A stretch of 64,000 nucleotides of DNA from an uncultured Verrucomicrobiae bacterium (GTDB taxonomy: Bacteria > Verrucomicrobiota > Verrucomicrobiia > Limisphaerales > UBA11358), in assembly GCA_963755455.1 (NCBI GenBank), contig CAVWJH010000004.1, positions 204,948-268,947 on the forward strand. The letters are read 5' to 3'. Under the pieces are notes generated by a model. The model was not told the origin of the DNA. It saw nothing but the letters and a program-made list of their open reading frames with translations, and did not search any database. A program made the translations under genes and the position numbers. Positions within the stretch are counted from its first letter, which is position 1, and every line of letters starts with the position of its first letter. Below, one piece after another: positions 8,695-57,523 of this stretch.

Positions 8695-11600
8695 TCAAAT
8701 TTCCACGTCCACCGTTTTCCGCGCCGATAAAAAATGCAGCCAGCAGTTCGTGACCGGGCGCAAATAAATTTTCGCCAGCGCGCTTGCGTAAAGTTTTAGC
8801 TGCGGTGCATAAATCCTTGTCTTGTCCGCCAAATCGTTTGAGCGAACCTCGTCCGTCTTGAAATCCACCAGCCAGATTTCATCCGGCAGCAGCACGGCCA
8901 AATCCGCCACGCCCTGCACGACAACGAATTCATCTTCCAGTTCCGGCGATGATTTTGTCCCGGTGATTTCCGACAATTCCTGCCGGACTGAACTTCGCCG
9001 TGAACGCCAGTTCGCGTCTCACGCTCGCCGCGTGTCGCCGGATTTTTTGCCCAGCATCCGAATTCCAAAACGCCGCCAGCGCGTTCAAATCCAAAACCGC
9101 GCGTTCGTCCGCCGACAAAAAATTTTCCCGCTCCAGCCGTTCCGCCCCGGCTTCAAGCGCCGCCAGTTCACCCGCATTTTCCAGCGCGATATGCTGGAGA
9201 AACTTGTGGTGCGCCGTGCCGGAATCCGCCGCGCTCAATTTCCGATTTTGCCCCGGTTTCGGGCGTGCGTCGCCCGCGAGCCATTTTTCCGAAAACTCAA
9301 TACTGAAAATTTGTTCCGCTTCGTCATCCAATTCTTCCGCCGCCTGCCGCCGCAATGCCGTGACCGACGACTTGGCCTTTCGTTCGGTCGCCGCGCCGAA
9401 GCCATATTCCCACGCTCAAAGTTTCCTGAAGCTTTTCGCAAAGTTTCATCGTCGAGCTCCGGCAGTTCCGTTTCTGTTTTCTGCTTTCCACTTTCCGCTT
9501 TTTCCGCCGCAAGTTCCGTGTCGTCCACAATCCGCCAGCGCAGATGCGGCAGTTCGCCTTGCGTTTCGCTTTGGCCTTTGGACTTTGAACTTCGGAGTTG
9601 GTTCGCAAACCACAAGCCCAGCCAGTCCGCGAAACTTTTCGCCGCCAGAATTTTTTGCGGCGTGATTGGCCGGTTTCGATGCAAAACTCCGTCCCATTTT
9701 TTCTCCGTGACGCTGGCGGTCAAAATCAGCTTGTCGCGCGCCCGCGTCATGCGCGACGTAAAGCAGCCGCAGTTCCTCGCCCGCGCAGTTCGCGGCGCTG
9801 CTGCCGTTGCGCGAGCCAGTGCGGCAGACTCGGATAACGCCCGCCCGCGTGCGGCGGTTTCACTTTCGGACAAAGCCCGAATTCCTCGTCAAAAATGATT
9901 TCGCCGCGCAGATCCTGCGTCGTTGAATTTTTTTGCAAGATCGGCGAGGGCGACGACTGGAAATTCCAAGCCCTTTGCTTTGATGAATGCTCATCAGCCG
10001 CACGGCATTTTCGTCCGCGACCGGCGAAACTTCCGGTTCAACTTCCGCCTCGCGCTGCGCCTCGATGAATTTCAAAAAACGGAACAGTCCCTGCCGCTGA
10101 AACTGGTCGAACTTTTGCGCGAGATTCAAAAACCGCTCGAATGTTCGCGCGCCCGCTGCGCGCCGCGCGGACGCGTCCGCAGCCAGTCGGCGTAAAGTGT
10201 TTCCGCCAGCATCGCTTCCAGGCATTGCGAGAGCGAGTATTGCTGCGCCAGTTTCCGCCAGCGCATGAAAACCGTTCGAGAAAATTTCCGGTTTTCGCGC
10301 GCGTGTCATTTTTAATTTTTAATTTTGACTTTTGAATTCGAGTTGAGCGCCGTCCAAAAATGTTCATCCCTTGCCGCCAGCCGGATTTCCGCCAGTTCGT
10401 CCAGCGAGCAGCCGACGAGCGGCGAGCGCAGCACCGCGATGCACGGCACATCCTGCAACGGATTGTCGAGCAGTTGCAGCAGGCTTAACAGATCGAGAAT
10501 TTCGCTGCCGTCGAAAAAACCGCCGCGCTCGACCACGCAGCGGCACGCCGGCCGCTCGAATTGTTTCGCAAAAATTTCCGCCTTGCCCGCCGGCGAACGC
10601 AGCAGCACCGCCACGTCGCGCCATTCGACTGCGCGGAAAATCTTTTGTTTCGTCGTCCCAAATTTCATGCTGTTCTGCGTTTTAGTTCTTTCAGTCGCGC
10701 CGCGAGCAGCCGCGCTTCCTTTTCCGATTCGTCCAAATCCGCCAATTCATTTGCGCCGGATTCATCTTCTGGGTCAACCTCGTCGTTGCGTCCGGCTTTG
10801 AGCCGCAAAAGCAGTTCCGTTCGCGGCGACGGATCTTTTGCCGCGCTGAAATCTTCGCGCGTTTCCGGCGAGCCGAATTTCAATTGTGCGTCCGCGTCAT
10901 AATTCACGCCGCCGATTTCCTCGCGCATGAGCGGCTGGAAAACGGAATTGACGAAATTCAAGCAGCGATTCGCGGCTGCGGAAATTTTCGGCAAGCGGAA
11001 TCGTCTGGCCGTTTTCGTTCGCGCCAGTTTTTTGCGTAGTCGCGGAAGATTTTCGGGTCGGCGAGCCGGAAACGGTAAATGCTCTGCTTCACGTCGCCGA
11101 CAAGGAAACGGTTCGCGTCCGCGCCGTCGCGGGAAAGCGCGGCGATGATTTTGTCCTGCGCGGCGTTGATGTCCTGATATTCGTCCACGAAAACGAAGCG
11201 TAATTTTTCGCGCCAGATTTCGGCGACGGCGGTTGGTTTGTTCGCGGAAAAATCCCAGAGCAGTTTCAGCGCGAACTGTTCGAGGTCGTGAAAATCCAGC
11301 ACGCCGTCGGCGCGTTTGCGCGTCGGAAAAATTTTCCGGCAAATTCCTGCGCCAGCCGCAGCAAAGTTTCCATGTGGCCGCGAACCCAGTTCCAATCTTC
11401 CGCGAGCGGATCGCTGCCGTTTTTGACCGGCGCGAGCGCGGCGAGAAAAGCGGCTTCGTCGAACAAATCTTCCAGCGGCTTGCGCAAAATGGTTTTGCGT
11501 TTGGCCGGCCAGTTGCCGTCGGCGGAAACGATTTGTTCCAGAACTTCCGCCGCAAGTTCGCGCGTGAAGTTTTTTTCAAGACGCGACAAAATGCCCGTCA

Positions 11601-18105: not shown

Positions 18106-19482
18106 ATGAAATCAAACGTCCTGTCCAAATTGGGCCGCCGCACCGCGCTGCCGCCGATCTCGTGGCTCATGCAAGCCGCGCTCACGCGGCCAAAACTCAT
18201 TTCTCTCGCCGCCGGGTTCACGGACAACTCCACTTTGCCGGTCGAAATTTCGCGCAAGCTGCTAAATGAAATTTTGCGTTCGCCAAAAACCGGCCAGCCC
18301 GCGCTGCAATACGGCATCACCGCCGGTGAAATGAATTTGCGCGAACTCACGGCGAAACATCTGCACAAATTGGATTCAGAGTCCTCCTCGTCCTCGTCCC
18401 TCGTCCTCGAACAAATATCGAGGACGAGGACGAGAACGAGGGACGAGGCCGAAAAAAACTATTCGCCGGAACGCGTCATCATCACCGGCGGCTCGCAGCA
18501 GTTGCTTTACATGACGCTCGAAGCGCTCTGCGACGAAAGCGACATCATCCTCGTCGAAGACCCGACGTATTTTGTTTTTTTAAGCATCCTTCAAAGTCGC
18601 GGCATCAAGGCGCGCGGCGTGAAATTGGAACGCGATGGGATTGATTTGTCGCATCTCGAAAAAGTTTTGGAACGGCTGAAAAAATCCGGCGAACTCCGCC
18701 GCGTGAAGGCGCTTTATCTCGTCACCTATTTTCAAAACCCGACCGGCGCGACGACTTCACTCGCGAAAAAATCCGCCGCGCTGAAGTTGTTGAAAAAATT
18801 CGGGCGCGCCGCCGGACATCCGATTTATCTGCTCGAAGACGCCGCGTATCGTGAACTGTCTTTTCCCGGTAGGGCTGACCTGCCGGTCAGCCGGGCGGAG
18901 CCGCAGCTCCGCCCTGCCACGCCGCCTACTGCGCTTACGCTGCCCGGCGCGTCGGAGCGTGTGATTTACACCGGCACTTACAGCAAGCCCTACGCGCCCG
19001 GCGCGCGAATCGGCTTCGGCATTTTGCCGGAACCGATTTTCACGACCGTCCAGCACATCAAGGGCAACCATGATTTCGGCTCGGCGAATTTGCTGCAGCA
19101 ACTTTTGGCGCACGCGCTCGAAACCGGACTTTACGACAAACACGTCGCGAAGGTGCAAAAAAATTACGCCCGCAAGGCGCGCGTGATGAAGCTCGCGCTC
19201 GCGGAACATTTTCCGGCCAGCGTGAAGATCTGGGAATCCGGCGGCGGACTTTATTTCTGGGCGCGATTGCCGAAGGGAATTTCCGCCGGCGTGAAATCAA
19301 AAATGTTTCAGACCGCGCTGAAGAACGACGTGCTCTATGTTCCCGGCGAACTCTGCTACGCCGACGATCCGTCGCGCGCCAAACCGGACAACGAAATGCG
19401 CATCAGCTTCGGCAGCGCGAACGAGGAAAACATCCGCAAAGGAATCGCGCGGCTGGGCAAGGTGTTGAAGAAATTTGTTTGA
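18106..19482 (+). CDS. PLP-dependent aminotransferase (class I/II fold) carrying two in-frame repeat insertions
   Basis: LAAGFTD..LQYG...ITGGSQQLLYM...LVEDPTYF...YLVTYFQNPTG...YTGTYSKPYAPGARIGF...MRISFG. Repeat-derived insertions lie at 18381-18448 and 18868-18918. Confidence 0.8.
   Translation: MKSNVLSKLGRRTALPPISWLMQAALTRPKLISLAAGFTDNSTLPVEISRKLLNEILRSPKTGQPALQYGITAGEMNLRELTAKHLHKLDSESSSSSSLVLEQISRTRTRTRDEAEKNYSPERVIITGGSQQLLYMTLEALCDESDIILVEDPTYFVFLSILQSRGIKARGVKLERDGIDLSHLEKVLERLKKSGELRRVKALYLVTYFQNPTGATTSLAKKSAALKLLKKFGRAAGHPIYLLEDAAYRELSFPGRADLPVSRAEPQLRPATPPTALTLPGASERVIYTGTYSKPYAPGARIGFGILPEPIFTTVQHIKGNHDFGSANLLQQLLAHALETGLYDKHVAKVQKNYARKARVMKLALAEHFPASVKIWESGGGLYFWARLPKGISAGVKSKMFQTALKNDVLYVPGELCYADDPSRAKPDNEMRISFGSANEENIRKGIARLGKVLKKFV
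18381..18448. repeat. Hairpin repeat family F (GTCCTCGTCCTCG type) inside the aminotransferase CDS
   Basis: GTCCTCCTCGTCCTCGTCCCTCGTCCTCGA ACAAATA TCGAGGACGAGGACGAGAACGAGGGACGAGG. It is translated as SSSSSSLVLEQISRTRTRTRDE. Confidence 0.8.
18868..18918. repeat. Repeat family C (GGTAGGGC double hairpin) inside the aminotransferase CDS
   Basis: GGTAGGGCTGACCTGCCGGTCAGCC GGGCGGAGCCGCAGCTCCGCCCTGCC. It is 51 bp, exactly 17 codons, translated GRADLPVSRAEPQLRPA. Confidence 0.75.
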
Positions 19483-21044: not shown

Positions 21045-22424
21045 ATGAAATCCGTCGCAATCATCGGCGCTGGCATCACGGGACTGACCGCCGCGTTTTA
21101 TCTGAAACGCAAAGGTGTGCCAGTCACGGTTTATGAGGCGGGCCGGCGGGCAGGTGGCGTAATTCAATCCGTCCGCAAGGACGGTTTTCTGGCCGAGTCC
21201 GGGCCGAACACAATTCTCGAAACGTCGCCGAAGATCGCGCAGCTTGTCCGCGACGCCGGGCTGGAATCGCGCAAGCTCGCCACCAATCCGAAAGCCGAGG
21301 CGCGCTACGTCGTGCGCGGCGGAAAGCCCGTCGCCATGCCATCATCACAGCTTGGCATTTTCACGTCGGAACTTTTGAGCGCGAAGGCAAAGTTTGCGCT
21401 GGTTCGCGAACCGTTCGTGCCGCCGCGCCGCGATGGAAATGAGGAGAGTGTCGCGGAATTCGTAACGCGCCGGCTGAACCGGGAATTTCTGGATCGCATG
21501 GTGGACGCGCTGGTGGCTGGAATTTACGCGGGCGATCCGCACAGACTTTCCGTCCAGCACGCGCTGCCGAGGTTGAAGGCGCTGGAGGACAAATACGGTT
21601 CGCTCATCAAAGGCCAGATTCGTGGCGCGCGCGAGCGCAAGAAATCTGGCGAAGTGGCGCGCGACCGGGCGCCGAAATTTTCCTTCGACGAAGGCTTGCA
21701 GGTTTTGCCGGACACGCTGGCGGCGCTGCTTGGCGACTCGTTGAAATTGAATTCGCCGGTGACAAAGCTCGCGCAGACGGGCGACGGCTGGCGAGTTTCA
21801 ACTTCGAATGGCGAAGCGGAATTTGGCGCGGTGATTTATTGCGGCACGGCCTACAAACTTGCGGAATTAAAAATCGAATCGCAAAAGGCGTTGGATTTTT
21901 CCGTGTTTTCCGAAATCCGTTATCCGCCGGTGGCGAGCGTGGTGCTGGGTTTTCGCCGCGAAGACGTGGCTCATTCGTGCGAAGGATTCGGGATGTTGAT
22001 TCCGGGAATTGAAGGCTTCAAAATTCTCGGCACGATATTTTCGTCGTCGCTGTTTCCAAATCGCGCGCCTGCCGGCCACGTTTTGCTTTCGATTTACGTC
22101 GGCGGCGAGCGTCAGCCGGAACTGGCGTCGTTGCCGGCGGACGAACTGGTGAAACTGGTCTGCGAAGATTTGCGCGTGCTGCTGGGTGTGCGCGGCCAGC
22201 CGGTTTTCACGCATCACCATTTCTGGCCGCGCGCGATTCCGCAATACAATCTCGGCTACGGCAAATTCAAGGACTTGCTCAACGAAATTGAATCAAAGGC
22301 GCGCGGATTGTTTTTTGCCGGAAGTTTTCGCGACGGCGTTTCGCTGGGCGATTCGATTGTATCTGGCGCGAACATTGCGGAGCGCGTGGGGAAACTTTTT
22401 TTAGCCACAGATGTTCACAGATGA
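21045..22424 (+). CDS. hemY: Protoporphyrinogen/coproporphyrinogen oxidase (HemY type, FAD-dependent)
   Basis: MKSVAIIGAGITGLTAAFYL is the dinucleotide-binding motif, and HemY-like sequence runs throughout. It is followed by hemH. Confidence 0.85.
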   Translation: MKSVAIIGAGITGLTAAFYLKRKGVPVTVYEAGRRAGGVIQSVRKDGFLAESGPNTILETSPKIAQLVRDAGLESRKLATNPKAEARYVVRGGKPVAMPSSQLGIFTSELLSAKAKFALVREPFVPPRRDGNEESVAEFVTRRLNREFLDRMVDALVAGIYAGDPHRLSVQHALPRLKALEDKYGSLIKGQIRGARERKKSGEVARDRAPKFSFDEGLQVLPDTLAALLGDSLKLNSPVTKLAQTGDGWRVSTSNGEAEFGAVIYCGTAYKLAELKIESQKALDFSVFSEIRYPPVASVVLGFRREDVAHSCEGFGMLIPGIEGFKILGTIFSSSLFPNRAPAGHVLLSIYVGGERQPELASLPADELVKLVCEDLRVLLGVRGQPVFTHHHFWPRAIPQYNLGYGKFKDLLNEIESKARGLFFAGSFRDGVSLGDSIVSGANIAERVGKLFLATDVHR

Positions 22425-22486
22425 AACGATGATAAACCGGAAAAGAGTTTTTGAATCTGTGTCCATCTGTGTTTATCTGTGGCTGA
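22401..22486. repeat. Palindromic repeat family D (GCCACAGATG...CATCTGTGGC) between hemY and hemH
   Basis: TTAGCCACAGATGTTCACAGATGAAACG ... GAATCTGTGTCCATCTGTGTTTATCTGTGGCTGAA. It encodes the last residues of HemY (ATDVHR). Confidence 0.8.
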
Positions 22487-22493
22487 ATTTTTT

Positions 22494-31734: not shown

Positions 31735-31793
31735 GTAGGACTCGAGGTGACGAGACTCAAATCAAGTCAGAGACTCCTCACGTCGTCCCCTAC
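31735..31793. repeat. Hairpin repeat family A (GTAGGAGCCGAGGTGACGAG..CTC / GAGACTCCTTACGTCGTCTCCTAC)
   Basis: GTAGGACTCGAGGTGACGAGACTC, a loop, then GAGACTCCTCACGTCGTCCCCTAC. The arms pair over about 24 nt with a few mismatches. Confidence 0.8.
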
Positions 31794-31982: not shown

Positions 31983-32068
31983 GGCTCTTGACCGCGTAAT
32001 TCAATTGGTGGCCGTCCGCAAGGATCTCCGGCAACGCCCCGCTCGTGCCAGCGCCACCGACTAAAAAA

Positions 32069-32153
32069 TTAACGCAAAGACGCAAAGATGCCAGGGCGCA
32101 AAGAACAGACGGTATTTGCCTTGCGTCTTTGCCGCTTTGCGCCTTTGCGTTAA
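32069..32153. repeat. Palindromic repeat family B (TTAACGCAAAGACGCAAAG...CTTTGCGTTAA)
   Basis: TTAACGCAAAGACGCAAAGATGCCAGGGCGCAAAG...GCCTTGCGTCTTTGCCGCTTTGCGCCTTTGCGTTAA. This copy is on the left flank of the R-M pair. Confidence 0.8.
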
Positions 32154-32320
32154 ATCCGGCCAGCTTGGGCGAAAATCCCTGCAACGACGGGTCGGGAAAA
32201 CCAATCGTCGCCACCGTGCCGCCCAGATGCGCCGTGCGGCTGGGCAAAATGGGCAACAGGGCGAACCGCCAAATGAATACCGGGCGTGACATTCAAATCA
32301 ATATCCGGTTTCATCTCGCC

Positions 32321-33157
32321 ATGAGCGCATATCAAGATTTTACAACGCGGTTGAAACTGCTGATTAGCAAGAATCCGCAGCTCATCACAACCACATTGAG
32401 CAATATCTTCACGATGCGGCTGATTGGGAATAAAACCCATGGTGATTTGGCGGAGATAGCGATTGCGGAGTTCATCAACCAATATATGTATGACTTCAAA
32501 TCTCTTCATGTTGGAAAAGACCTTTATCGCGCCAAACAACATGAGGAGGACATCACAATAACCAATGAAATAACAAAGGCCACATTTCCAGTGAGCTTGA
32601 AAGCTTACGGCGATGGCCCACTCCAATTATCCACGGACAAGAACTTCCAAATGTTCCCGGTGCTCAAAGCGATTGGAGCTGCGATCGAGCATAAGGATGA
32701 CATTGCGCGAATCTGGGCGCACGAAGCGTTTTCAGAATTCAGCACCATGAATGTGCTTCCACTGATTTACGACGAGAAAAAGCAAAGATGCAACATTCTC
32801 GTTTTTAATGCCGAGGCAGCCAAAGCCAATGTCGCCCGCGTCGCTTACGAGGAGGCGGGACGTGGACGGAAACACCCGGTTTTCCGTTTTTATGATGCGG
32901 AAGGTGCCTACATTTGTGAGGTGCGCTATGGCAGCGGAACTGCCAATGCGCTGCAACGCGGTCTCTGGACACATACCAAAAATGGCCTGAAGTATTTCGA
33001 CAGCGTCACCGCTGGCTGGATTGATTACTCGCACAATCATGTGCTGGTGAAATTGTTTTCACACGCGCTGCTTTCCACCAGCAAAGGCCATGAGGCGGCT
33101 TTGCTGAAGTTGAAAGAGGACATCGAAGAACAGAAGCAAAATGCCAGGCTCCGCTAA
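32321..33157 (+). CDS. Putative type II restriction endonuclease (cognate of the adjacent methyltransferase)
   Basis: 278-aa ORF ending 2 bp before the methylase ATG. Possible PD..(D/E)xK-like elements are GDLAEIAI...EEDITI...VSLK. No family recognised, so the role is inferred from context. The ORF-track start at 32045 lies in repeats. Confidence 0.5.
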   Translation: MSAYQDFTTRLKLLISKNPQLITTTLSNIFTMRLIGNKTHGDLAEIAIAEFINQYMYDFKSLHVGKDLYRAKQHEEDITITNEITKATFPVSLKAYGDGPLQLSTDKNFQMFPVLKAIGAAIEHKDDIARIWAHEAFSEFSTMNVLPLIYDEKKQRCNILVFNAEAAKANVARVAYEEAGRGRKHPVFRFYDAEGAYICEVRYGSGTANALQRGLWTHTKNGLKYFDSVTAGWIDYSHNHVLVKLFSHALLSTSKGHEAALLKLKEDIEEQKQNARLR

Positions 33158-34293: not shown

Positions 34294-34413
34294 ACGGCAC
34301 GCCTTCGCTCCGCGATTACAGACTCCAATCACTCCAATCGTCCATCACTAAACGATTTTGGCACGGCGTTCGTCCCCAGCGCCGTCGGCGCGGCATATTC
34401 GGCGGGGAAATTT

Positions 34414-34502
34414 TCAACGCAAAGACGCAAAGGCGCGAAGTCGCAAGGAATTTTTGCTTTGCGCTCATTGCGTCTTGGCGTCTTTGCGTTAATTCTTTCA
34501 CT
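34414..34502. repeat. Palindromic repeat family B, right flank of the R-M pair
   Basis: TCAACGCAAAGACGCAAAGGCGCGAAGTCGCAAGG...GCTTTGCGCTCATTGCGTCTTGGCGTCTTTGCGTTAA. Confidence 0.8.
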
Positions 34503-34618: not shown

Positions 34619-34711
34619 GTAGGAGTCGAGGTGACGAGACTCATTTCAATCTTGGACCGGCGAATGCGGATTGCGGATTTTCAATCAGAGACTCCTCACG
34701 TCGTCCCCTGC
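34619..34711. repeat. Hairpin repeat family A, long-loop copy
   Basis: GTAGGAGTCGAGGTGACGAGACTC ... GAGACTCCTCACGTCGTCCCCTGC. The loop itself carries another short motif (TGCGGATTGCGGATTTTCAATC). Confidence 0.8.
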
Positions 34712-35640: not shown

Positions 35641-36262
35641 TCATCCTTCCACCAATTCGCATTCCGCACCCGACAATTGCCGCCACTGACCGGTCGGCAA
35701 TTCCGACAGCCAGAAATGCCCAATCCGCACGCGCAGCAAACGCAATGTCGGATGGCCGATGGCCGCCGTCATTTTACGAACCTGACGGTTCTTGCCCTCG
35801 ATCAATTCCAGACCGATCCAGCAATCAGGAACGCTCTTGCGAAAACGGATGGGCGGATTGCGCGGCGGAATGATGCAGTGTCGGCGCTGTGCGCCGATTG
35901 TTTCGAGACCACAGGCTCGACGCTGCAATTTCCGGCTGCGGCTCCAGCAACCACGCACGGCACGGCAACGTCTTCCGGCCCTGAATCAAAATTCCTCTTT
36001 CCAGTTTCCGCAAACTTTCCGGCGACGGAATTTTTTCGATCTGCGCCCAATACTCGCGCTCGTGCGCGTGGCGCGGGTGCAGCAGTTTTTCGTTCCACTC
36101 CGGTTCGTCGCTCAAGAGCAAAAGGCCTTCCGAATCTGCGTCGAGCCGTCCGATGGGATAAACATTTTTTGGTAAACCAAATTCAGCCAGTGCGCGATTA
36201 GGAGAGCCGTCGCCGGTGAATTGCGACAGCACGCCGAACGGTTTGTTGAATGCGATGAGCAT
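35641..36262 (-). pseudogene. Pseudouridine synthase (RluE/RsuA family); one frame break near 35940
   Basis: MLIAFNKPFGVLSQFT...YPIGRLDADSEGLLLLS...REYWAQIE lies in ORF 35825..36262. The C-terminal [31 protein letters not shown] lies in ORF 35641..35958. Confidence 0.75.
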
Positions 36263-36277
36263 TACGCCGATATTTTT

Positions 36278-36345
36278 GCCACAGAGTCACAGAGAACACA
36301 GGGAAAAATGTCTTGTTTTGCTCCGCGTCTCTGTGTCTCTGTGGC
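36278..36345. repeat. Palindromic repeat family D variant (CACAGAG type)
   Basis: GCCACAGAGTCACAGAGAACACAGGG ... GTCTCTGTGTCTCTGTGGC, between the rluE-like gene and the HAD-Nudix gene. Confidence 0.75.
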
Positions 36346-37498: not shown

Positions 37499-37843
37499 AT
37501 GTCCAAAATATCCATCGTTGAACTTGGAGTCCTTTATTGCGTCGGCGTGCCGGATGAAGAGCGCGCCAGGCCGCAGCGGCTGCTGCTGACGGTTGAAATG
37601 GAATGCGATTTCTCCGCCGCCGCGCAGACAGATACAATCACCGACACGATTGATTATTTTGCCGTTTCGCAGCGGCTGCTGGGTTTTGGCGAAGGACGCA
37701 GTTGGAAATTGATCGAGAAACTCGCCGACGACATTTGTGAAATGATCCTGGCCGAATTCAAACCGCAAAGCGTCACGGTCGAAGTCAAAAAATTCCCCAT
37801 CCAGCAGGCGCGGCACGTTTCCGTCATCGCCAAGAAATCGTAG
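37499..37843 (+). CDS. folB: Dihydroneopterin aldolase
   Basis: 114 aa. LYCVGVPDEERARPQRLLLTVEM...DTIDYFAVSQRLL....EKLADDI...VTVEVKKF fits the FolB pattern. The stop codon TAG lies inside a hairpin repeat. Confidence 0.75.
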   Translation: MSKISIVELGVLYCVGVPDEERARPQRLLLTVEMECDFSAAAQTDTITDTIDYFAVSQRLLGFGEGRSWKLIEKLADDICEMILAEFKPQSVTVEVKKFPIQQARHVSVIAKKS

Positions 37844-37907
37844 GAGCCGAGGTGACGAGGCTCTGACTAAATTATTTTGAAGTGAGACTCCTTACGTCGT
37901 CTCCCAC
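37840..37907. repeat. Hairpin repeat family A between convergent folB and comEC
   Basis: GTAGGAGCCGAGGTGACGAGGCTC ... GAGACTCCTTACGTCGTCTCCCAC. It contains the folB stop (TAG, 37841-37843) and the last 11 codons plus the stop of comEC. Confidence 0.85.
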
Positions 37908-40885: not shown

Positions 40886-41701
40886 ATGCTCAAGCTCGGC
40901 GTCAACATTGACCACGTCGCGACTCTGCGCGAGGCGCGGTATCGCGGGCGCGGGTTCGGCGAGCCGAGTCCGGTTGAGGCCGCGCGCATTTGTGAGGCGG
41001 CGGGCGCGCACGGCATCACCGCGCATTTGCGCGAAGACAGGCGGCACATTCAAGACCGCGACATTCTGGAATTGCGCGAGAAAATCGAAACGCGGCTGAA
41101 CCTGGAAATGGCCAACGCGCCGGAAATCATTTCCATTGCGCTAAAATTGAGGCCGGAGATTGTCTGCATCGTCCCCGAACGCCGGCTTGAAGTGACGACC
41201 GAAGGCGGACTGGATGTTGTCGCCGCCGAAAAATCTTTGACCGAGACGCGCAAGAAAATGAACGACGCGAACATCGAAGTCAGTTTGTTCATCACGCCGG
41301 ATGAAAAGCAGATTGAGGCGGCGGCGCGGGTTGGAAGCCAGTTCATTGAATTGCACACCGGCGCGTTTGCGGAGGAATTTTTTAGAAAATGGATTTGTAG
41401 GAGCCGAGGTGACAAGACTCTGACTGAAAAACAGAAAACCGATCAGAGACTCCTTACGTCGTCTCCTACGGATGAAATTGAATTGCAGCGCTTAATTTCT
41501 GGCGCAGAGCAGGCACACGCGCTGGGTTTGAAGGTGAACGCCGGGCACGGATTAAATTTGGAAAATCTTCCGACACTTTTCCGCGTGCCGCATCTGGTGG
41601 AATTGAACATTGGTCACAGCATCGTGAGCCGCGCGGTTTTTGTCGGGATGGAAAAAGCCGTGCATGAAATGCTGGCGTTGATGAAAGATTACTGCGGGTA
41701 A
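40886..41701 (+). CDS. pdxJ: Pyridoxine 5'-phosphate synthase with an in-frame repeat insertion
   Basis: MLKLGVNIDHVATLREAR, GITAHLREDRRHI, LNLEMA, VPERRLEVTTEGGLDV, IELHTG, LGLKVNAGHGL, ELNIGHSIV. An extra segment of about 29 codons coincides with the hairpin repeat at 41397-41469. Confidence 0.9.
   Translation: MLKLGVNIDHVATLREARYRGRGFGEPSPVEAARICEAAGAHGITAHLREDRRHIQDRDILELREKIETRLNLEMANAPEIISIALKLRPEIVCIVPERRLEVTTEGGLDVVAAEKSLTETRKKMNDANIEVSLFITPDEKQIEAAARVGSQFIELHTGAFAEEFFRKWICRSRGDKTLTEKQKTDQRLLTSSPTDEIELQRLISGAEQAHALGLKVNAGHGLNLENLPTLFRVPHLVELNIGHSIVSRAVFVGMEKAVHEMLALMKDYCG
41397..41469. repeat. Hairpin repeat family A inserted inside pdxJ
   Basis: GTAGGAGCCGAGGTGACAAGACTC ... GAGACTCCTTACGTCGTCTCCTAC lies within the pdxJ reading frame. 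Confidence 0.85.
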
Positions 41702-45948: not shown

Positions 45949-46938
45949 ATGGAAACGGGAATTTTCAACGGATTGATTTTGATTTTTTGCCTGCTGCTGT
46001 CGTTTTTGCTGTCGGGCATGGAGGCGGGCGTATTTGCGCTGAACCGGCTGCGCGTGCGGCGGCTCGCGCGCTCGGGCAAGCCATCGGCAAAACTGCTGAA
46101 CGGCTTCCTCGAAAAGCCGGAGAAATTTCTGTGGACGATCCTTGTCGGGAACACGCTCGCTAATTTTTTGATCCTTGGTTTTACGCTCGTGAAGATTCAC
46201 GAGTGGCTTTTCGGCAATACAATTTTAATTGTCGCAATTTTCGCCGTCGCAGTTTTTTTATTTTATGCGTTCTTCGATTTGTTGCCGAAAATACTTTTTC
46301 GGACGTTTCCAAACCGGTTATGCCTTGCCGCCGCGCGCATTTTCCGGCTCGTGAATTTTATTTTGGGCCCGCTCGTTTCGATTGTCGAAGGCGTTTCGCA
46401 GGCGATTTTGCGAGTGACCGGCGGGCAGGCTTTCACCGGGCGGCTGTTCGGCAACCGCGAGGAAATGCGCGCGGTGATGCGCGAATCCGCGCCGCAATTC
46501 ACGAGCGCCGAACACGCGATGATCAACCGCGTGCTGGATTTGCAAAATTTCACCGTGCGTCAAATCACAACGCCGCTCGCGCAACTCGTGACCGTCGAAT
46601 CCCCAGTGCCGCTCGGCATCGCGTTGAATCTGGCGCGCGAACGGAAATTTTCGCGTCTGCCCGTCTGGGAAATGCGCGACGGGAAAAATCGCATCGCCGG
46701 ACTGCTGATGATCGGCCCGCTGCTTTTCCGCGACGATCTGGATTTGCAAAAACCCGCCGCCGCGCAAATGACGCCCGCATTGTTTATTGGCGAAGACACG
46801 CGGCTGGAAGTTGCGCTGCGCCGGATGCAGCGGGCAGGGGAACGATTGGCGATTGTGCTCGCGCGCGACGGAAAAGAAATCGGCGTCGCGTCGCTCGAAG
46901 ACATTTTGAAAGTCATGTTCGGCGAGGTGAAATTGTGA
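45949..46938 (+). CDS. CNNM-like DUF21 + CBS-pair protein, paralog 2 (no CorC_HlyC tail)
   Basis: SGMEAGVFALNRLRV...LVGNTLAN, then a CBS region. It starts 1 bp after the paralog 1 stop. Confidence 0.75.
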   Translation: METGIFNGLILIFCLLLSFLLSGMEAGVFALNRLRVRRLARSGKPSAKLLNGFLEKPEKFLWTILVGNTLANFLILGFTLVKIHEWLFGNTILIVAIFAVAVFLFYAFFDLLPKILFRTFPNRLCLAAARIFRLVNFILGPLVSIVEGVSQAILRVTGGQAFTGRLFGNREEMRAVMRESAPQFTSAEHAMINRVLDLQNFTVRQITTPLAQLVTVESPVPLGIALNLARERKFSRLPVWEMRDGKNRIAGLLMIGPLLFRDDLDLQKPAAAQMTPALFIGEDTRLEVALRRMQRAGERLAIVLARDGKEIGVASLEDILKVMFGEVKL

Positions 46939-48245
46939 ACAGCTTCATTTTAATCGCGTTGAAAATCCTGGCCGTGCTCGCGCTCGTGCTGTTGAACGGA
47001 TTTTTCGTGGCGGCGGAATTCTCGCTCGTGCGAATCCGCGAAACGCAGCTCGAAACGCTTGTCGCCAAAAACTGGCGGCGCGCGAAGATGGCGCGGCACA
47101 TCGTCCGTCATCTCAATTCTTATTTGAGCGCGACGCAGCTCGGCATCACGATGGTCAGCCTTGGCCTCGGCTATCTGGGCGAGCCGATTTTTTCTTCGCT
47201 GCTTGGGCCGGTTTTTAATCTGTTCGGCCTGGAATCCACAGAATGGATAAAAACAATTTCGCTCGTCGTCGGCTTCAGCGTGCTGACATTTTTGAGCGTC
47301 GTCGCGGGCGAACTCGCGCCGAAATGGCTGACGATCCAGAAGCCTTTGCCCATTGCGCTGTGGTCGGCGTATCCGCTGCACTGGTTTTACATCGCGCTGT
47401 ATCCGTTCAACCGGCTGCTCAATCACGCCGCGCGGTTTCTTCTGGAACAAATCGGCATCTCGCCCGACGACAAGGCGGATGGCGCGCATTCCGAGGAGGA
47501 ATTGCGCCTCGTGCTCGCGTCCACGCAAAACACGGCGGGCGGGCGCAACATTGTCATGAACGCGCTCGACCTGCGCCATCGCGTCGTGCGCGAAATCATG
47601 CGCCCGCGAAATGAAATCACCGCGCTCAACGACGAGGCGAGCTTTGCAGAATGCCTGGAAATCGCGGAGAAGACGCGCTACTCGCGCTTTCCGATCTGCG
47701 ACGGCGGCGACCTGGACAAAACGCTCGGCGTCGTCCACATCAAGGACATTTATCCGCTGCGGCAAAAGGCGCAATCGGCGGCGGACTTGCTGTTCGTCGC
47801 GCGAAAATTGATTTTTGTTCCCGAAACCGCGCGGCTGGAGAAATTGTTGCAATTGTTTCTGGAGCGGAAATTGCATTTTGCCATTGTCGTGGACGAATTT
47901 GGCGGAACGCTCGGAATCGTCACGCTCGAAAACGCGCTGGAAACGCTCGTCGGCCAGATTCAGGACGAGTTTGATTCGGAAAAATCAGATTTGGTTCGGC
48001 TCGGCGAAAATATATGGGAAGCCGCCGGCACTTTGGCGCTGCACGATCTGGAAAAAATCACCGGCGAAGTGGCGCACGACGAAAATGTGACGACCGCGAG
48101 CGGCTGGCTGACGGAAAAGCTCGGAGGCTTTCCGAAGGCCGGCGATTTGCTGACGGTTGGAAATTTTGAATTGCGCGTGGAGGAAATGGACGGCCCGCGC
48201 GTGGCGCGGCTGAAAATAATGAAAGGCACGTCAAAAAACCAATAG
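46935..48245 (+). CDS. CNNM/HlyC-CorC family transporter, paralog 3
   Basis: The GTG at 46935 overlaps the paralog 2 stop (GTGA). NGFFVAAEFSLVRIR...QLGITMVSLGLG, a CBS pair, then WEAAGTLALHDL...GWL...VEEMDGPRVARLKI. Confidence 0.8.
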   Translation: MNSFILIALKILAVLALVLLNGFFVAAEFSLVRIRETQLETLVAKNWRRAKMARHIVRHLNSYLSATQLGITMVSLGLGYLGEPIFSSLLGPVFNLFGLESTEWIKTISLVVGFSVLTFLSVVAGELAPKWLTIQKPLPIALWSAYPLHWFYIALYPFNRLLNHAARFLLEQIGISPDDKADGAHSEEELRLVLASTQNTAGGRNIVMNALDLRHRVVREIMRPRNEITALNDEASFAECLEIAEKTRYSRFPICDGGDLDKTLGVVHIKDIYPLRQKAQSAADLLFVARKLIFVPETARLEKLLQLFLERKLHFAIVVDEFGGTLGIVTLENALETLVGQIQDEFDSEKSDLVRLGENIWEAAGTLALHDLEKITGEVAHDENVTTASGWLTEKLGGFPKAGDLLTVGNFELRVEEMDGPRVARLKIMKGTSKNQ

Positions 48246-53871: not shown

Positions 53872-53948
53872 GTAGCAGCCGACGTGAGGAGGCTCTGACT
53901 TTCTTCCTTTTCACTTTTCAATTTGAGCCTCGTCACCTCGGCTGCTAC
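53872..53948. repeat. Hairpin repeat family A, inverted orientation, just after the sigma-fusion gene stop
   Basis: GTAGCAGCCGACGTGAGGAGGCTC ... GAGCCTCGTCACCTCGGCTGCTAC. Confidence 0.8.
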
Positions 53949-54868: not shown

Positions 54869-55027
54869 CGTGCCGCGTCAATTTAACACGACAAAAAATC
54901 GAGGCAAGGCCACCGAGTCGAGAACTTTTTGGGAATTTTCAATCCAATACGTTCAGCGCCGTAGGCGCGGAATCTTTGTAGAAACCGGAGCCAATCAAAT
55001 CCCAAGCCCCGTCGGGGCGGCATATCC

Positions 55028-55108
55028 GGTGGGGCGAGGCTGCTGACGAGCCGGGGCTTGCACGCGGACGCCATTTTATTTTCGGCCCGCGAGGACGCTC
55101 GCCCCACC
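55028..55108. repeat. Palindromic repeat family E (GGTGGGGCGAGCGTCCTCGCGGGCCG type)
   Basis: GGTGGGGCGAGGCTGCTGACGAGCCGGGG ... CGGCCCGCGAGGACGCTCGCCCCACC. Confidence 0.7.
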
Positions 55109-55386
55109 TAATTTGCGGATGATGTCGCTCCTAAACGGAGCTTGGGCAATGTTTTTCGTTTGTGGTCTGTCTATAACGATTCCGCACCTACGGTGCTTGG
55201 AAAAACAAAGTCGAGATTGCCAAACAAATGAAAATTCCGCCACTTCACGCTTCGACGGCTTCCATGTCCGTCAATTCACCGGCGAATTCCAGGCAGGCGC
55301 GGATGTCGGGCTGAATACGCCCGATTCAAAACCGAGTCGGGAATTTTTTGACGGCAACATCAACTTTGTTCCGCATATTTGTCGTT

Positions 55387-55444
55387 GGTAGGGCGGTGCT
55401 GCCGCGCCGCCCAAATATGGGCTGACCGGCAGGTCAGCCCTACC
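55387..55444. repeat. Repeat family C, intergenic copy
   Basis: GGTAGGGCGGTGCTGCCGCGCCGCCC AAATAT GGGCTGACCGGCAGGTCAGCCCTACC. It shares both sub-hairpin types with the other two copies. Confidence 0.8.
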
Positions 55445-55930
55445 GTCATTTGCTTCACCACCAAGACATCGAAATCAAAACTTGCTGTCTTCGTGCCTTG
55501 GTGGTTGAAAATTCAAGGCCAATGCGCCAGAGGACTGGCGCACTACAAGACGCTTCGCGCAATCCGGTTGCCATCTAAAGAGCGCGCCAGCGTCTTGGAC
55601 TGCGGCGGCCCTCCGCCGCTCTTCCCCCGGGTGCATCTGGACATTGTTCTTATTTCTGAACCAGTAGCGCAGATTTGCAATCTGCTGTATCGCGGATTTT
55701 CAATCCGCAAGGCGTCGGCGGTTCAATGGGCTTGGGCTTGGCGGCGCGCTGCCGAATGCAATTCGGCGATACGGCAGATTTCAAATCTGCGCTACCTCTG
55801 CTGGCCGCAAGAACAGTGTCCAGATGCACCCTCTTCCCCAAGAAGCCGGAAAACCCCGCCGGACGGCAAATATCCCTTAAATCGCTCATTTTGAACCCAT
55901 ACGAGCCGTTCCAGCCCATTTTTGTCGGCC

Positions 55931-56414
55931 TAAAAACTGCCGTCGAACCGTTCGACGGGTATCAAAAACTTATTTTAGGTGGCGTCGAACAGCCCGGCCT
56001 CCCCTAAAAACTCTTTTTGAGAGGCGTCGAAGGCTTCGACAGTGTTCCGAGGCTTCCAAAAAAGCCGTCGAACGCTTCGATGGGTCTAAAAAACTTATTT
56101 TGGAAGGCATCGAAGGCGTCGAACAAGCCCCAAAACTCCTTAAAATAGCCATCGAACGGTTCGACGGGTATCAAAAACTTATTTTGGAAGGCGTCGAACG
56201 GTCCGAGCAAGTCCCGAGGCTCCCCAAAAAGCCATCGAACGGCTCGACGGGTCTGAAAAACTTATTTTGGGAGGCATCGAACGGTTCGACGGGGTTGAAA
56301 ATATCCTTTTGAAAGGTGTCGAACAGCCCGGTCTCATATAAAAACTCTTTTTCATGGCCGTCGAATGCTTCGACGTGCTCAAAAAACTTGTTTCAGGAGG
56401 CGTTGGACGGCGGT
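55931..56414. repeat. Tandem array of a unit of about 42 bp (about 11 copies) with a dyad-symmetric GC core and an A/T spacer
   Basis: Units such as GCCGTCGAACGGTTCGACGGGTATCAAAAACTTATTTTGGAAG. Palindromic cores include CGTCGAACCGTTCGACG (55941-55957) and GTCGAAGGCTTCGAC (56026-56040). Stops occur in every frame. Confidence 0.85.
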
Positions 56415-56503: not shown

Positions 56504-57436
56504 TCAATCCAGCCGCCCGCCCTGTTTCAGCGGATGTCCGGCTAAAAATTCCTGCGCGCCCATGCGCCGTCCGCCTTCGCGCTGCAATTCCAGAATCCGC
56601 AGCGCGTTTTTCCCGCAGGCGACAACAATTCCATTTTTGTCCGCCGACAAGACCGTGCCGGGCTGGCCATTATCTCCGGCGACTTCCGCTTTCCAGATTT
56701 TCAGCAATTGCAACTTTGATTCAGTTTTCAAAAATGTGAACGCGCCCGGCCACGGCGTGAACGCACGCAGACGGTTCAAGATTTTCTCCGCCGGCTCGCT
56801 CCAGTCAATCCTGCCGTCCTCCCGTTTTATCTTCGCCGCGTAGCTCGCGCCCTCGGCAGGCTGCGGCTTTGGCGGGATTTTCCCGGCGACGTAATCTGGA
56901 ATTGTCTCAACCAGCAATTCCGCGCCGAGTTGCGCCAGACGGTCGTGGAGCGTTTGCGAGTTGTCTTCGGGCAAAATCGGTGTGCGCGCCTGTGAAATGA
57001 TTTCGCCGGTGTCCAAGCCCGCGTCCATTTTCATGATCGTCACGCCGGTTTCGGTTTCGCCGTTGAGGATTGCGGACTGGATCGGCGCCGCGCCGCGATA
57101 TTTCGGCAGCAGCGACGTATGGACGTTCACGCAGCCAAACTTCGGCAAATCCAGAATCGCTTGCGGCAAAATCTGTCCGTAAGCAACGACGACAATCAAA
57201 TCCGGCTGCAACCCGCGCAGTTCGGAGATGAATTTTTCGTCGCGTGCTTTCACGGGCTGCACAACCGGCAGATTCAATTTCTCCGCCAGAATTTTCACCG
57301 GCGAGAATTGCAATTTAAGATCGCGGCCTCTGGGTTTGTCCGGCTGCGTGACGACGGCAGCGACGGAAAATGTTCCCGCCAGCTTTTCCAGACTGGCGCA
57401 GGACAGTTCCGCCGTGCCCATGAAAACAATCTTCAT
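56504..57436 (-). CDS. fmt: Methionyl-tRNA formyltransferase
   Basis: MKIVFMGTAE...VVTQPDKPRGR........VVVAYGQILP......GCVNVHTSLLPKYRGAAPIQ.AI..G...TGVTIM.MD.G.DTG. Confidence 0.9.
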   Translation of the reverse strand: MKIVFMGTAELSCASLEKLAGTFSVAAVVTQPDKPRGRDLKLQFSPVKILAEKLNLPVVQPVKARDEKFISELRGLQPDLIVVVAYGQILPQAILDLPKFGCVNVHTSLLPKYRGAAPIQSAILNGETETGVTIMKMDAGLDTGEIISQARTPILPEDNSQTLHDRLAQLGAELLVETIPDYVAGKIPPKPQPAEGASYAAKIKREDGRIDWSEPAEKILNRLRAFTPWPGAFTFLKTESKLQLLKIWKAEVAGDNGQPGTVLSADKNGIVVACGKNALRILELQREGGRRMGAQEFLAGHPLKQGGRLD

Positions 57437-57461
57437 TGATGATTTGCGATTTACGATTGAT
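57437..57461 (-). repeat. AAATCGT-heptamer motif directly upstream of the fmt ATG
   Basis: The minus strand reads ATCAATCGTAAATCGCAAATCATCA, followed by the ATG at 57436. An inverted partner (CGTAAATCATAAACCGCAAATC) lies at about 57491-57512. Confidence 0.65.
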
Positions 57462-57523
57462 GATTTTTGCCGCCGCAAAGACCGGCAAAGCGTAAATCAT
57501 AAACCGCAAATCTTAAATCCAAT

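Follow-up and report, generated by a model that had tools for sequence, protein, structure and literature searches.

A 64,000-nt stretch of contig CAVWJH010000004.1, from an uncultured Verrucomicrobiae bacterium of the order Limisphaerales (hereafter the window), carries a 73-base palindromic repeat inside pdxJ, the gene for pyridoxine 5'-phosphate synthase. Our analysis suggests that this repeat is an old insertion of a GTAG-tagged repetitive extragenic palindromic (REP) element, which entered the gene in frame as a dimer and has since been maintained as a nucleotide sequence. The protein linker that it occupies appears to be a hot spot where hairpin repeats of many families turn over. We put the probability of this overall account at roughly 0.85. 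For comparison we used a sample of 1.93 Mb of related sequence, comprising 80 species-level Verrucomicrobiota genomes, 80 metagenome contigs and three contigs of the closest proteins; L-numbers such as L002 or L163 denote its individual genomes or contigs.

The pdxJ coding sequence (CDS) starts with the ATG at 40886 and reads without an internal stop to the termination codon that ends at 41701, giving 271 residues. The protein matches the whole of the Pfam profile PF03740 (positions 1-234, E = 4e-92) as well as solved PdxJ chains in the Protein Data Bank (PDB; E = 1e-69). Aligned with E. coli PdxJ (1ho1), residues 2-162 and 197-267 pair with chain positions 4-160 and 169-239, and about 26 residues between the two blocks remain unpaired. 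D8, H9, H46, R48, E73, T103, T104, E154, H220, G221, G242 and H243, which we take to correspond to the catalytic set of the E. coli enzyme, are invariant among 64 PdxJ homologs. AlphaFold2 (AF2), run with 64 homologs and with model numbering that begins at residue 2 of the CDS, predicted a confident TIM barrel (mean predicted local distance difference test score (pLDDT) 80.8; core blocks 90-98), which Foldseek aligned to 1ho1, 5dlc and 3f4n with target-normalised template modelling (TM) scores of 0.89-0.91. In the model, residues 174-194, which follow helix 158-173 in the interval from strand 152-156 to helix 197-211, have a pLDDT below 50. Secondary structure in the AF2 model, taken together with the 1ho1 alignment, places the insert in the linker of strand beta6 and helix alpha6, where it is predicted to form a disordered excursion from the surface of an intact barrel. 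Whether the insert is a surface loop had been raised as a question in a preliminary description of this DNA, made from the sequence alone.

That description had placed a full-length hairpin at 41397-41469 and had read it as an insertion of about 29 codons relative to E. coli PdxJ, in frame and free of stop codons. Both the hairpin and its status as an insertion were borne out. The 27-nt arms (41397-41423 and 41443-41469), separated by 19 nt, are 78% complementary, and none of 200 shuffles matched the RNA fold of -28.3 kcal/mol (z = -4.81; fold z-scores here and below are for RNA against shuffles). The element begins GTAGG, finishes CCTAC and codes for CRSRGDKTLTEKQKTDQRLLTSSPT, with the open reading frame (ORF) passing straight through. 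The size needed correction: from HTG to NAGHG the window protein has 66 residues, against 41 in the insert-free standard form, a net gain of 25 codons. The 41-residue form is found in about 60 of the 80 species-level genomes (for example L002, L011 and L012). PdxJ of L002 is 79% identical to the window protein, and its empty site is unstructured (z = -0.5).

The repeat belongs to a dispersed family, here called family A. With up to three mismatches allowed, the 24-nt left arm, searched without any filter on the head, occurs five times in the window (31735, 34619, 37840 and 41397 on the forward strand, 53948 on the reverse), with none expected from 100 shuffles, and all five copies start with GTAG. 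Gene context confirmed that the other four copies lie at gene ends or between genes, as described previously. The copy at 31735 stands between an AsnC-type regulator gene and the unassigned ORF 32045-33157, and that at 53872 begins 4 nt past the stop of a sigma-70/DUF3738 gene. At 37840, folB takes its TAG stop (37841-37843) from the GTAG head, and ComEC its C-terminal VGDDVRSLTSK from the opposite arm. A census of the sample plus the window found 77 monomers of 24 nt, forming 32 heads-out dimers (58-176 nt), and 13 unpaired monomers, some of which may have degenerate partners; 18 dimers in the sample lie outside the pdxJ site. Spacers of the remaining copies are unrelated to that of the pdxJ dimer.

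A monomer is made up of a head (GTAG or GTGG), a stem of 5-7 bp and a loop (GTGA or GTAA). At least 90% of 52 distinct monomers have A at head position 3 and a few have G, although head conservation among the census monomers is not independent evidence because a GT[AG]G head was a requirement of the search. In the same 52, the structure ....((((((((....)))))))) gave a covariation of 0.247; shuffles scored 0.074, none of 500 reaching the observed value, and slid partners did not exceed 0.068. Seven of the eight stem pairs vary on both sides; pair 8-21, for example, is CG in 32 monomers, AU in 8 and UA in 3, and pair 12-17 is CG in 35 and GC in 13. Stem variants include AGCCGAC/GTCGGCT, AGCCAAC/GTTGGCT, AGCGGAC/GTCCGCT, CCGCC/GGCGG and GAGAC/GTCTC. 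The last of these forms the right monomer in pdxJ, a double compensatory change with respect to GAGCC/GGCTC in L081 and L165. An Rfam scan of the window matched no family. The GT[AG]G head, the adjacent stem-loop, the inverted pairing and the dispersed, mostly extragenic copies near gene ends are those of GTAG-type REPs. By these features, the pdxJ repeat appears to be a GTAG-tagged REP element in a heads-out (tail-to-tail) dimer, resembling the REP doublets forming hairpins known as REPINs.

The pdxJ element is common to the closest relatives L163 (92% identity), L164 (93%), L081 and L165. Its ends are exactly alike in all four, and the flanking linker codons differ in sequence and length. 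The spacer is homologous to that of the window in L163, L164 and L081, being expanded in L081, and is different in L165. As the pdxJ genes of the Limisphaerales lineages that share the element differ at 27-57% of synonymous sites, these comparisons suggest an old insertion inherited across a set of lineages. Local misassembly is excluded because the element-bearing relatives are independent assemblies of different samples. An assembly artefact, or a non-functional copy of pdxJ in the window, is in our view scarcely credible: at least four independent assemblies and dozens of protein records have this element at this position, the reading frame is unbroken, no catalytic residue varies and the host gene is constrained, with a ratio of non-synonymous to synonymous divergence (pN/pS) of 0.13. 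What could be said for it is that the source contig is long (1.2 Mb) and possibly of long-read origin, and that there is an apparent frameshift at a repeat in a nearby gene and likewise in pdxJ of L061. In L061, the ortholog (around 10460-10660) has a family-A-like insert followed by a frameshift and stops after ...SRLMPAATVPGG; it is either a pseudogene or the product of a long-read indel error.

We compared divergence inside and outside the element by Nei-Gojobori counts for the five pdxJ orthologs that have it in common. In the REP arms (48 nt), raw divergence is 5.6%, with a synonymous divergence (pS) of 0.060, a non-synonymous divergence (pN) of 0.066 and a pN/pS of about 1.1. In the rest of pdxJ, 33% of third positions and 7.5% of positions 1 and 2 differ (pS 0.465, pN 0.062, pN/pS 0.13). 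Synonymous change in the arms is thus about 8 times slower than elsewhere in the gene, and between the window and L163 all three differences within the element are non-synonymous. These values suggest that PdxJ apart from the insert is under normal purifying selection and that the element is kept as a nucleotide sequence, not as a peptide. The latter is also indicated by the intergenic copy between folB and comEC, because its ortholog in L163 (3051-3118) is as conserved as the pdxJ copy, differing from the window at 2 of 48 arm positions. Either selection acting on the hairpin (or on its recognition sequence) or homogenisation among copies may account for the low pS of the arms.

The same figures bear on whether the segment could be a lineage-specific loop extension selected for a role of the PdxJ protein, such as oligomer contacts or regulation, with the palindrome being incidental. 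Such a role would agree with the retention of the segment in many lineages, always in frame, and with the tripeptide EEF before the linker, which is accompanied by an expanded linker in 28 of 28 cases. However, the arms have a pN/pS of about 1.1 against 0.13 for the host, and disorder is predicted for the insert. Relatives have unrelated sequences in this position, and the sequence of the insert itself recurs outside coding regions and within other proteins. We therefore consider a selected protein extension very improbable.

The linker has been used repeatedly. The standard linker is present in 108 of 158 intact pdxJ orthologs, another nine show short simple-repeat expansions of the (GCGGAAA)n type, and 41 have at least seven extra residues. 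By blastn, the 41 inserts fall into 12 sequence clusters, at least eight of which fold as long hairpins; among the latter are family A and its variants, the GGTGGGGCGAG...CTCGCCCCACC types, GGAGTGCGGTGAC, GGTAGGGTCATCGCG, a perfect (GAGGGTCGA)n palindrome, GGGAGCGCCGGCG and GGGAGCGCGGGCAGCC. Several of the linker hairpin families also occur dispersed through the sample, and one of them is in the window at 55020-55116 (GGTGGGGCGAGGCTGCTGACGAGCC, the type that occupies the pdxJ site in L004 and L008). An extra segment in close relatives without family A had been named in the preliminary description as a possible objection to an insertion. Many close relatives do hold an extra segment here, but it consists of other hairpin repeats, often unrelated in sequence, and therefore strengthens the insertion reading.

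Occupancy is concentrated among the closer orthologs, with 30 of 47 filled at a masked identity of at least 80% versus 6 of 97 below it. Empty alleles (L002, L106, L098, L011 and L014) are interspersed in the PdxJ tree. This pattern would fit a loop that opened once, early in a sub-lineage, and in which repeats then turned over, a course that the tree cannot prove. Outside the clade, separate insertion events probably gave rise to the linkers of L013/L022, L110, L120, L129 and L132/L151. Where the tripeptide before the linker is EHF, we found 29 standard alleles, two short expansions (+4 residues) and no large insert. The motif GGAAWTT (W, A or T) in the A-E-x-F codons was considered as a targeting signal and rejected: its association with inserts (overall Fisher p = 2e-5) is lost within the crown clade (p = 0.50), and is therefore phylogenetic or protein-level. 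The linkers of L006, L007, L017, L097, L099, L105 and L108 show expansions of 2-4 residues with a (GCGGAAA)n-like repeat encoding KAESGKRKA, which may be remnants of a deleted insert or independent products of slippage.

Hairpin-forming in-frame insertions were also screened over all orthologous ORF pairs of the sample. Family-A dimers stand in frame in MutY (L097) and in a pseudouridine synthase (L005), and the MutY insert (CRSRGDEPQT...) is read in the same frame as in PdxJ. Scattered in-frame hairpin inserts occur in a VanZ-like gene and ComEC as well, and most other well-sampled neighbouring genes had none or one in this screen. Within the window, a class I/II aminotransferase gene contains a hairpin of another family that encodes SSSSSSLVLEQISRTRTRTRDE; further along the same protein is a second odd segment, RADLPVSRAEPQLRPATPPTALTLPGA.

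The pseudouridine-synthase gene represents a second hot spot: a single position, CAGCCGGAAATTCCGCC when empty, holds differing hairpins in 11 of its 21 orthologs. In the window, a 58-nt hairpin splits this gene into two ORFs. Removal of exactly these 58 nt (35869-35926) restores the ORF and matches the empty allele of L163, CCGGAAATTCCGCC. The split is either a real disruption or due to a 1-nt assembly error in the insert. Since this insert breaks the frame, insertions are not intrinsically in frame, and the in-frame state in pdxJ is what selection lets through.

Recurrent occupancy and slow synonymous change could alternatively mean that a hairpin is kept in pdxJ for an RNA or DNA role there, such as mRNA stability or processing, a translational pause between beta6 and alpha6 or a protein-binding site. 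Occupancy of the linker would then reflect selection for a hairpin at that position. In keeping with such a role, synonymous change is about 8-fold slower in the arms than in the remainder of pdxJ, with a pN/pS of about 1 in the arms, unrelated hairpins fill the linker in 30 of the 47 closest orthologs, linker codons shrink beside the intact element in L163 and L164, and the loop and stem of the monomer are like stable RNA motifs. We nonetheless consider a local role unlikely, since insert-free alleles persist within the clade (the five interspersed ones above), the site has no terminator-like or promoter-like feature and matches no Rfam family, and an insertion at the second hot spot, which lies in an unrelated gene, can disrupt the frame. 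Moreover, the folB/comEC copy is equally conserved between the window and L163, and conservation therefore looks family-wide rather than specific to the pdxJ site.

Family-A heads are flanked by A/T-rich sequence (0.636, versus 0.414 at random positions; no random sample above 0.50); positions -1 and -2 are pyrimidines, and positions -4 to -7 form a run of A. An A/T-rich patch of this kind is present at both coding hot spots. A megablast presence/absence screen of close loci for a clean target-site duplication gave no clean REP case and instead turned up another recurrent site, the CNNM gene junction described below. Searching with E. coli RayT (phmmer) identified four ORFs resembling REP-associated tyrosine transposases (RAYTs) in related genomes (L092, L002, L025 and L003), one of which matches Pfam Y1_Tnp at 4e-9. 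Each has its own hairpin repeat on both sides in a REPtron-like arrangement, and the ORF of L025 is flanked by arrays of GGTAGGGCGCGTCAC...GCCCTACC units (GTAGGGCG units).

The A/T-rich flanks, together with diverged GAAATTC-like direct repeats beside several family-A copies and several inserts at the pseudouridine-synthase site, might also be expected of a conventional miniature inverted-repeat transposable element (MITE). Such an element would derive from an insertion sequence (IS) and be moved not by a REP/RAYT system but by a transposase of the DDE (aspartate-aspartate-glutamate) type acting on terminal inverted repeats, with duplication of the target site. The direct repeats, however, vary in length and offset, and the recent insertion at 35869-35926, compared with the empty L163 site, shows a duplication of at most 3 nt. 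The GTAG or GTGG heads are a REP signature, and each arm is a self-contained, covarying stem-loop, with 13 monomers found unpaired (some perhaps with degenerate partners). No IS with matching ends was seen, although no genome-wide search for a parent IS was made. Taken together, a MITE origin seems quite improbable.

For the REP insertion, which we favour, we propose a model where two 24-nt GTAG-REP monomers, joined tail to tail across a variable spacer, act as one REPIN-like unit. One such dimer would have landed in the A/T-rich stretch of pdxJ that codes for the linker of beta6 and alpha6. The enzyme would have stayed intact because the net insert length is a multiple of three and holds no in-frame stop, with the 25 added residues forming the disordered surface excursion. 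Since then it has persisted as a nucleotide sequence, whether because the hairpin or its recognition sequence is constrained or because copies homogenise one another. Within pdxJ, the insert-tolerant loop would resemble a short stretch of intergenic DNA: other hairpin families would insert there, replace earlier occupants or get deleted, making it a hot spot. Mobilisation would occur in trans by a RAYT-type tyrosine transposase, which we infer from family resemblance because no sampled RAYT is tied to family A.

Several points weigh against this account. A low pS is expected alike from selection on the hairpin and from gene conversion by other copies, and the neighbour-joining (NJ) tree of the 245-residue protein is too poorly resolved for counting insertions or proving turnover. 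The short direct repeats beside some copies are inconsistent in length and offset. No RAYT gene with family-A flanks was found in the 1.93-Mb sample, a search that for the source genome extended to the window only, and a profile search added none. Lastly, the signs that the insert is translated are limited to its intact frame and the conservation of the gene.

In-frame insertion of REPs is itself an already published phenomenon, and the host gene pdxJ and the repeat family are what is new here. The preliminary description had considered such behaviour undescribed for this kind of genome, which does not hold: intragenic GTAG-tagged REPs are known, and their number is highest in the verrucomicrobium Opitutus terrae (about 70 rows in Additional file 3; Di Nocera, De Gregorio & Rocco 2013, BMC Genomics 14:522, PMC3733652). 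Dimers or grouped repeats encode 20-30 residues in over half of those inserts, and GTGG head variants (O. terrae GTAG-20) and tail-to-tail dimers with variable spacers were described as well (PMC3733652). Family A resembles these REPs in its GTAG or GTGG head with a short stem-loop, its heads-out dimers with variable spacers and its location mostly at gene 3' ends, where the GTAG head can give a TAG stop (as for folB). With the O. terrae elements it further shares intragenic dimers encoding 20-30 residues and the phylum Verrucomicrobiota. Unlike them, it comes from the order Limisphaerales, not Opitutales, and its peptides are of the RSRGDE...LLTSAPT type rather than the VGPALAAG or GTGVPPV type. 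The occurrence of different REPs at about one site in Xanthomonas recB is a small precedent for a hot spot, and the intragenic list of that study contains neither pdxJ nor the families found here (PMC3733652). What goes beyond the ordinary, and is not in that study (PMC3733652), is a many-family hot spot across a clade and the nucleotide-level maintenance of an intragenic REP, as measured by host synonymous sites.

The preliminary description had likened the insert to Rickettsia palindromic elements (RPEs), and this likeness stands for behaviour but not for family membership. RPEs are reportedly the subject of work by Ogata et al. from 2000 and 2002. As with RPEs, palindromic repeats of several families have recurrently entered unrelated housekeeping genes in frame, in a region of the protein surface compatible with the fold; here this applies to PdxJ, MutY, the pseudouridine synthase and the aminotransferase. 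In contrast to RPE-1 (about 100-150 bp), the pdxJ element has 73 bp and is of the GTAG type, and instead of a reduced intracellular genome its host has a free-living, environmental one of about 55% G+C. RPEs have been summarised elsewhere (PMC10969869), and RPE-4 and RPE-6 were classed as CGTC-type REPs (PMC3733652). Because its ends are GTAG/CTAC, not CGTC, and its host is a member of Verrucomicrobiota, the pdxJ element is not a member of RPE-4 or RPE-6. In-frame fusions by intragenic enterobacterial repetitive intergenic consensus (ERIC) sequences or MITEs of Enterobacteria, by Coxiella QMITE1 and by Anabaena MITEs have also been reviewed (PMC10969869). Like family A, these are small non-autonomous repeats with open frames; they have IS-type terminal inverted repeats and target-site duplications, whereas family A is without a consistent duplication.

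With REPINs, the pdxJ element shares the arrangement of two inverted REP monomers as one longer hairpin unit and the long-term vertical persistence of orthologous copies, and the hairpin-flanked RAYT-like Y1 genes of related genomes recall REPIN/RAYT systems. REPINs and RAYT transposases are said to have been worked out by Bertels & Rainey, Nunvar, Ton-Hoang and Messing. REPINs are described as extragenic, unlike the pdxJ unit, which persists in a CDS and to whose family no sampled RAYT is tied (comparison drawn partly from PMC3733652 and PMC5581495).

A broader interpretation, which we offer tentatively and regard as possible rather than probable, is that coding loops, having once accepted a REP, become lasting landing pads. 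Many unrelated hairpin families would then turn over in them, while active maintenance would preserve the nucleotide sequence of the resident REP, be it through selection on the hairpin or through homogenisation, RAYT-linked or recombinational. If so, REP and REPIN elements would have a stable intragenic niche in Limisphaerales, where host synonymous sites would serve as an internal neutral yardstick and indicate that the elements are maintained, not decaying. Because the pdxJ element lies within a CDS, the synonymous rate around it directly measures conservation of the repeat, and the resulting value (about 8-fold) bears on whether REPs and REPINs persist through maintenance or are parasites in decay. 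The 8-codon linker of one small essential enzyme, filled in dozens of orthologs by at least eight unrelated hairpin families and left empty in others, also provides, like the pseudouridine-synthase gene nearby, a natural experiment on target choice and turnover of REPs. In-frame REP insertions are one route by which proteins gain loops and, for annotation, account for low-complexity peptides (RSRGDE..LLTSAPT, WGEATDEP..ARPT and similar) scattered in Verrucomicrobiota proteins.

Table 1. Features of the window and of related genomes; positions refer to the window unless an L-number is given.
Feature	Position	Strand	Evidence or remark
pdxJ (pyridoxine 5'-phosphate synthase), host gene	40886..41701	+	271 aa; PF03740; PDB chains
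Left linker codons, A/T-rich, GAATTTTTTAGAAAATGGATTT	41372..41396	+	Length and sequence vary among element-sharing orthologs
Family-A REP dimer, heads out, in frame in pdxJ	41397..41469	+	Encodes residues 171-195
Left REP monomer, GTAGGAGCCGAGGTGACAAGACTC	41397..41420	+	GTAG head, stem, GTGA loop; census and stem covariation
Variable spacer of pdxJ dimer, TGACTGAAAAACAGAAAACCGATCA	41421..41445	+	Ortholog comparison
Right REP monomer, minus-strand reading GTAGGAGACGACGTAAGGAGTCTC	41446..41469	-	Stem GAGAC/GTCTC
Right linker codons, GGATGAAATT	41470..41479	+	Precede conserved ELQRL helix
Family-A copy, intergenic	31735..31793	+	Arm search; census; fold z = -3.05
Family-A copy, degenerate right head CTGC	34619..34711	+	3' of D12 methyltransferase gene
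Family-A copy between convergent folB and comEC	37840..37907	+	Arm search; census
Family-A copy, GTAGCAGCC subtype	53872..53948	-	Fold z = -9.6
58-nt hairpin GCAGCGTCGAGCC...GCCGACACTGC	35869-35926, within 35641-36262	-	Splits PseudoU_synth_2-type gene into two ORFs
In-frame hairpin of another family, (CGAGGA)n-like arms	18386-18452, in aminotransferase 18106-19482	+	z = -6.9
RAYT-like Y1 ORF	L025 14996-15529		
RAYT-like Y1 ORF	L092 19227-19886		
RAYT-like Y1 ORF	L002 19682-20476	-	
RAYT-like Y1 ORF	L003 18128-18754	-	
CNNM-junction element	L163 10989-11167		
CNNM-junction element	L164 5695-5858		
CNNM-junction element	L008 15896-16051		
CNNM-junction element	L009 14659-14826		
CNNM-junction element	L081 4845-4986		

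Hairpin repeats are found at further places in the window and its relatives. The stop/start junction of a CNNM-family gene pair (GAGGTGAAAYTGTGAAC, about 46925-46950) is empty in the window and filled in several relatives by elements of 140-180 nt of at least two kinds, making it a third recurrent insertion point. At about 55000-56400, at least five different hairpin repeat families are crowded in one intergenic region, which, in addition to the 55020-55116 repeat, holds GGTAGGGCGG (55387-55444), GTAGCGCAGATTTGC (55664-55795) and CCGTCGAAC units (55940-56373). More hairpin families, including ACGCAAAG-unit, GCCACAGATG/CACAGAG-unit and AATCGTAAATC-unit types, lie at 32069-32153, 34407-34499, 22400-22487, 36278-36345 and 57435-57518, and some of them overlap predicted ORF starts.

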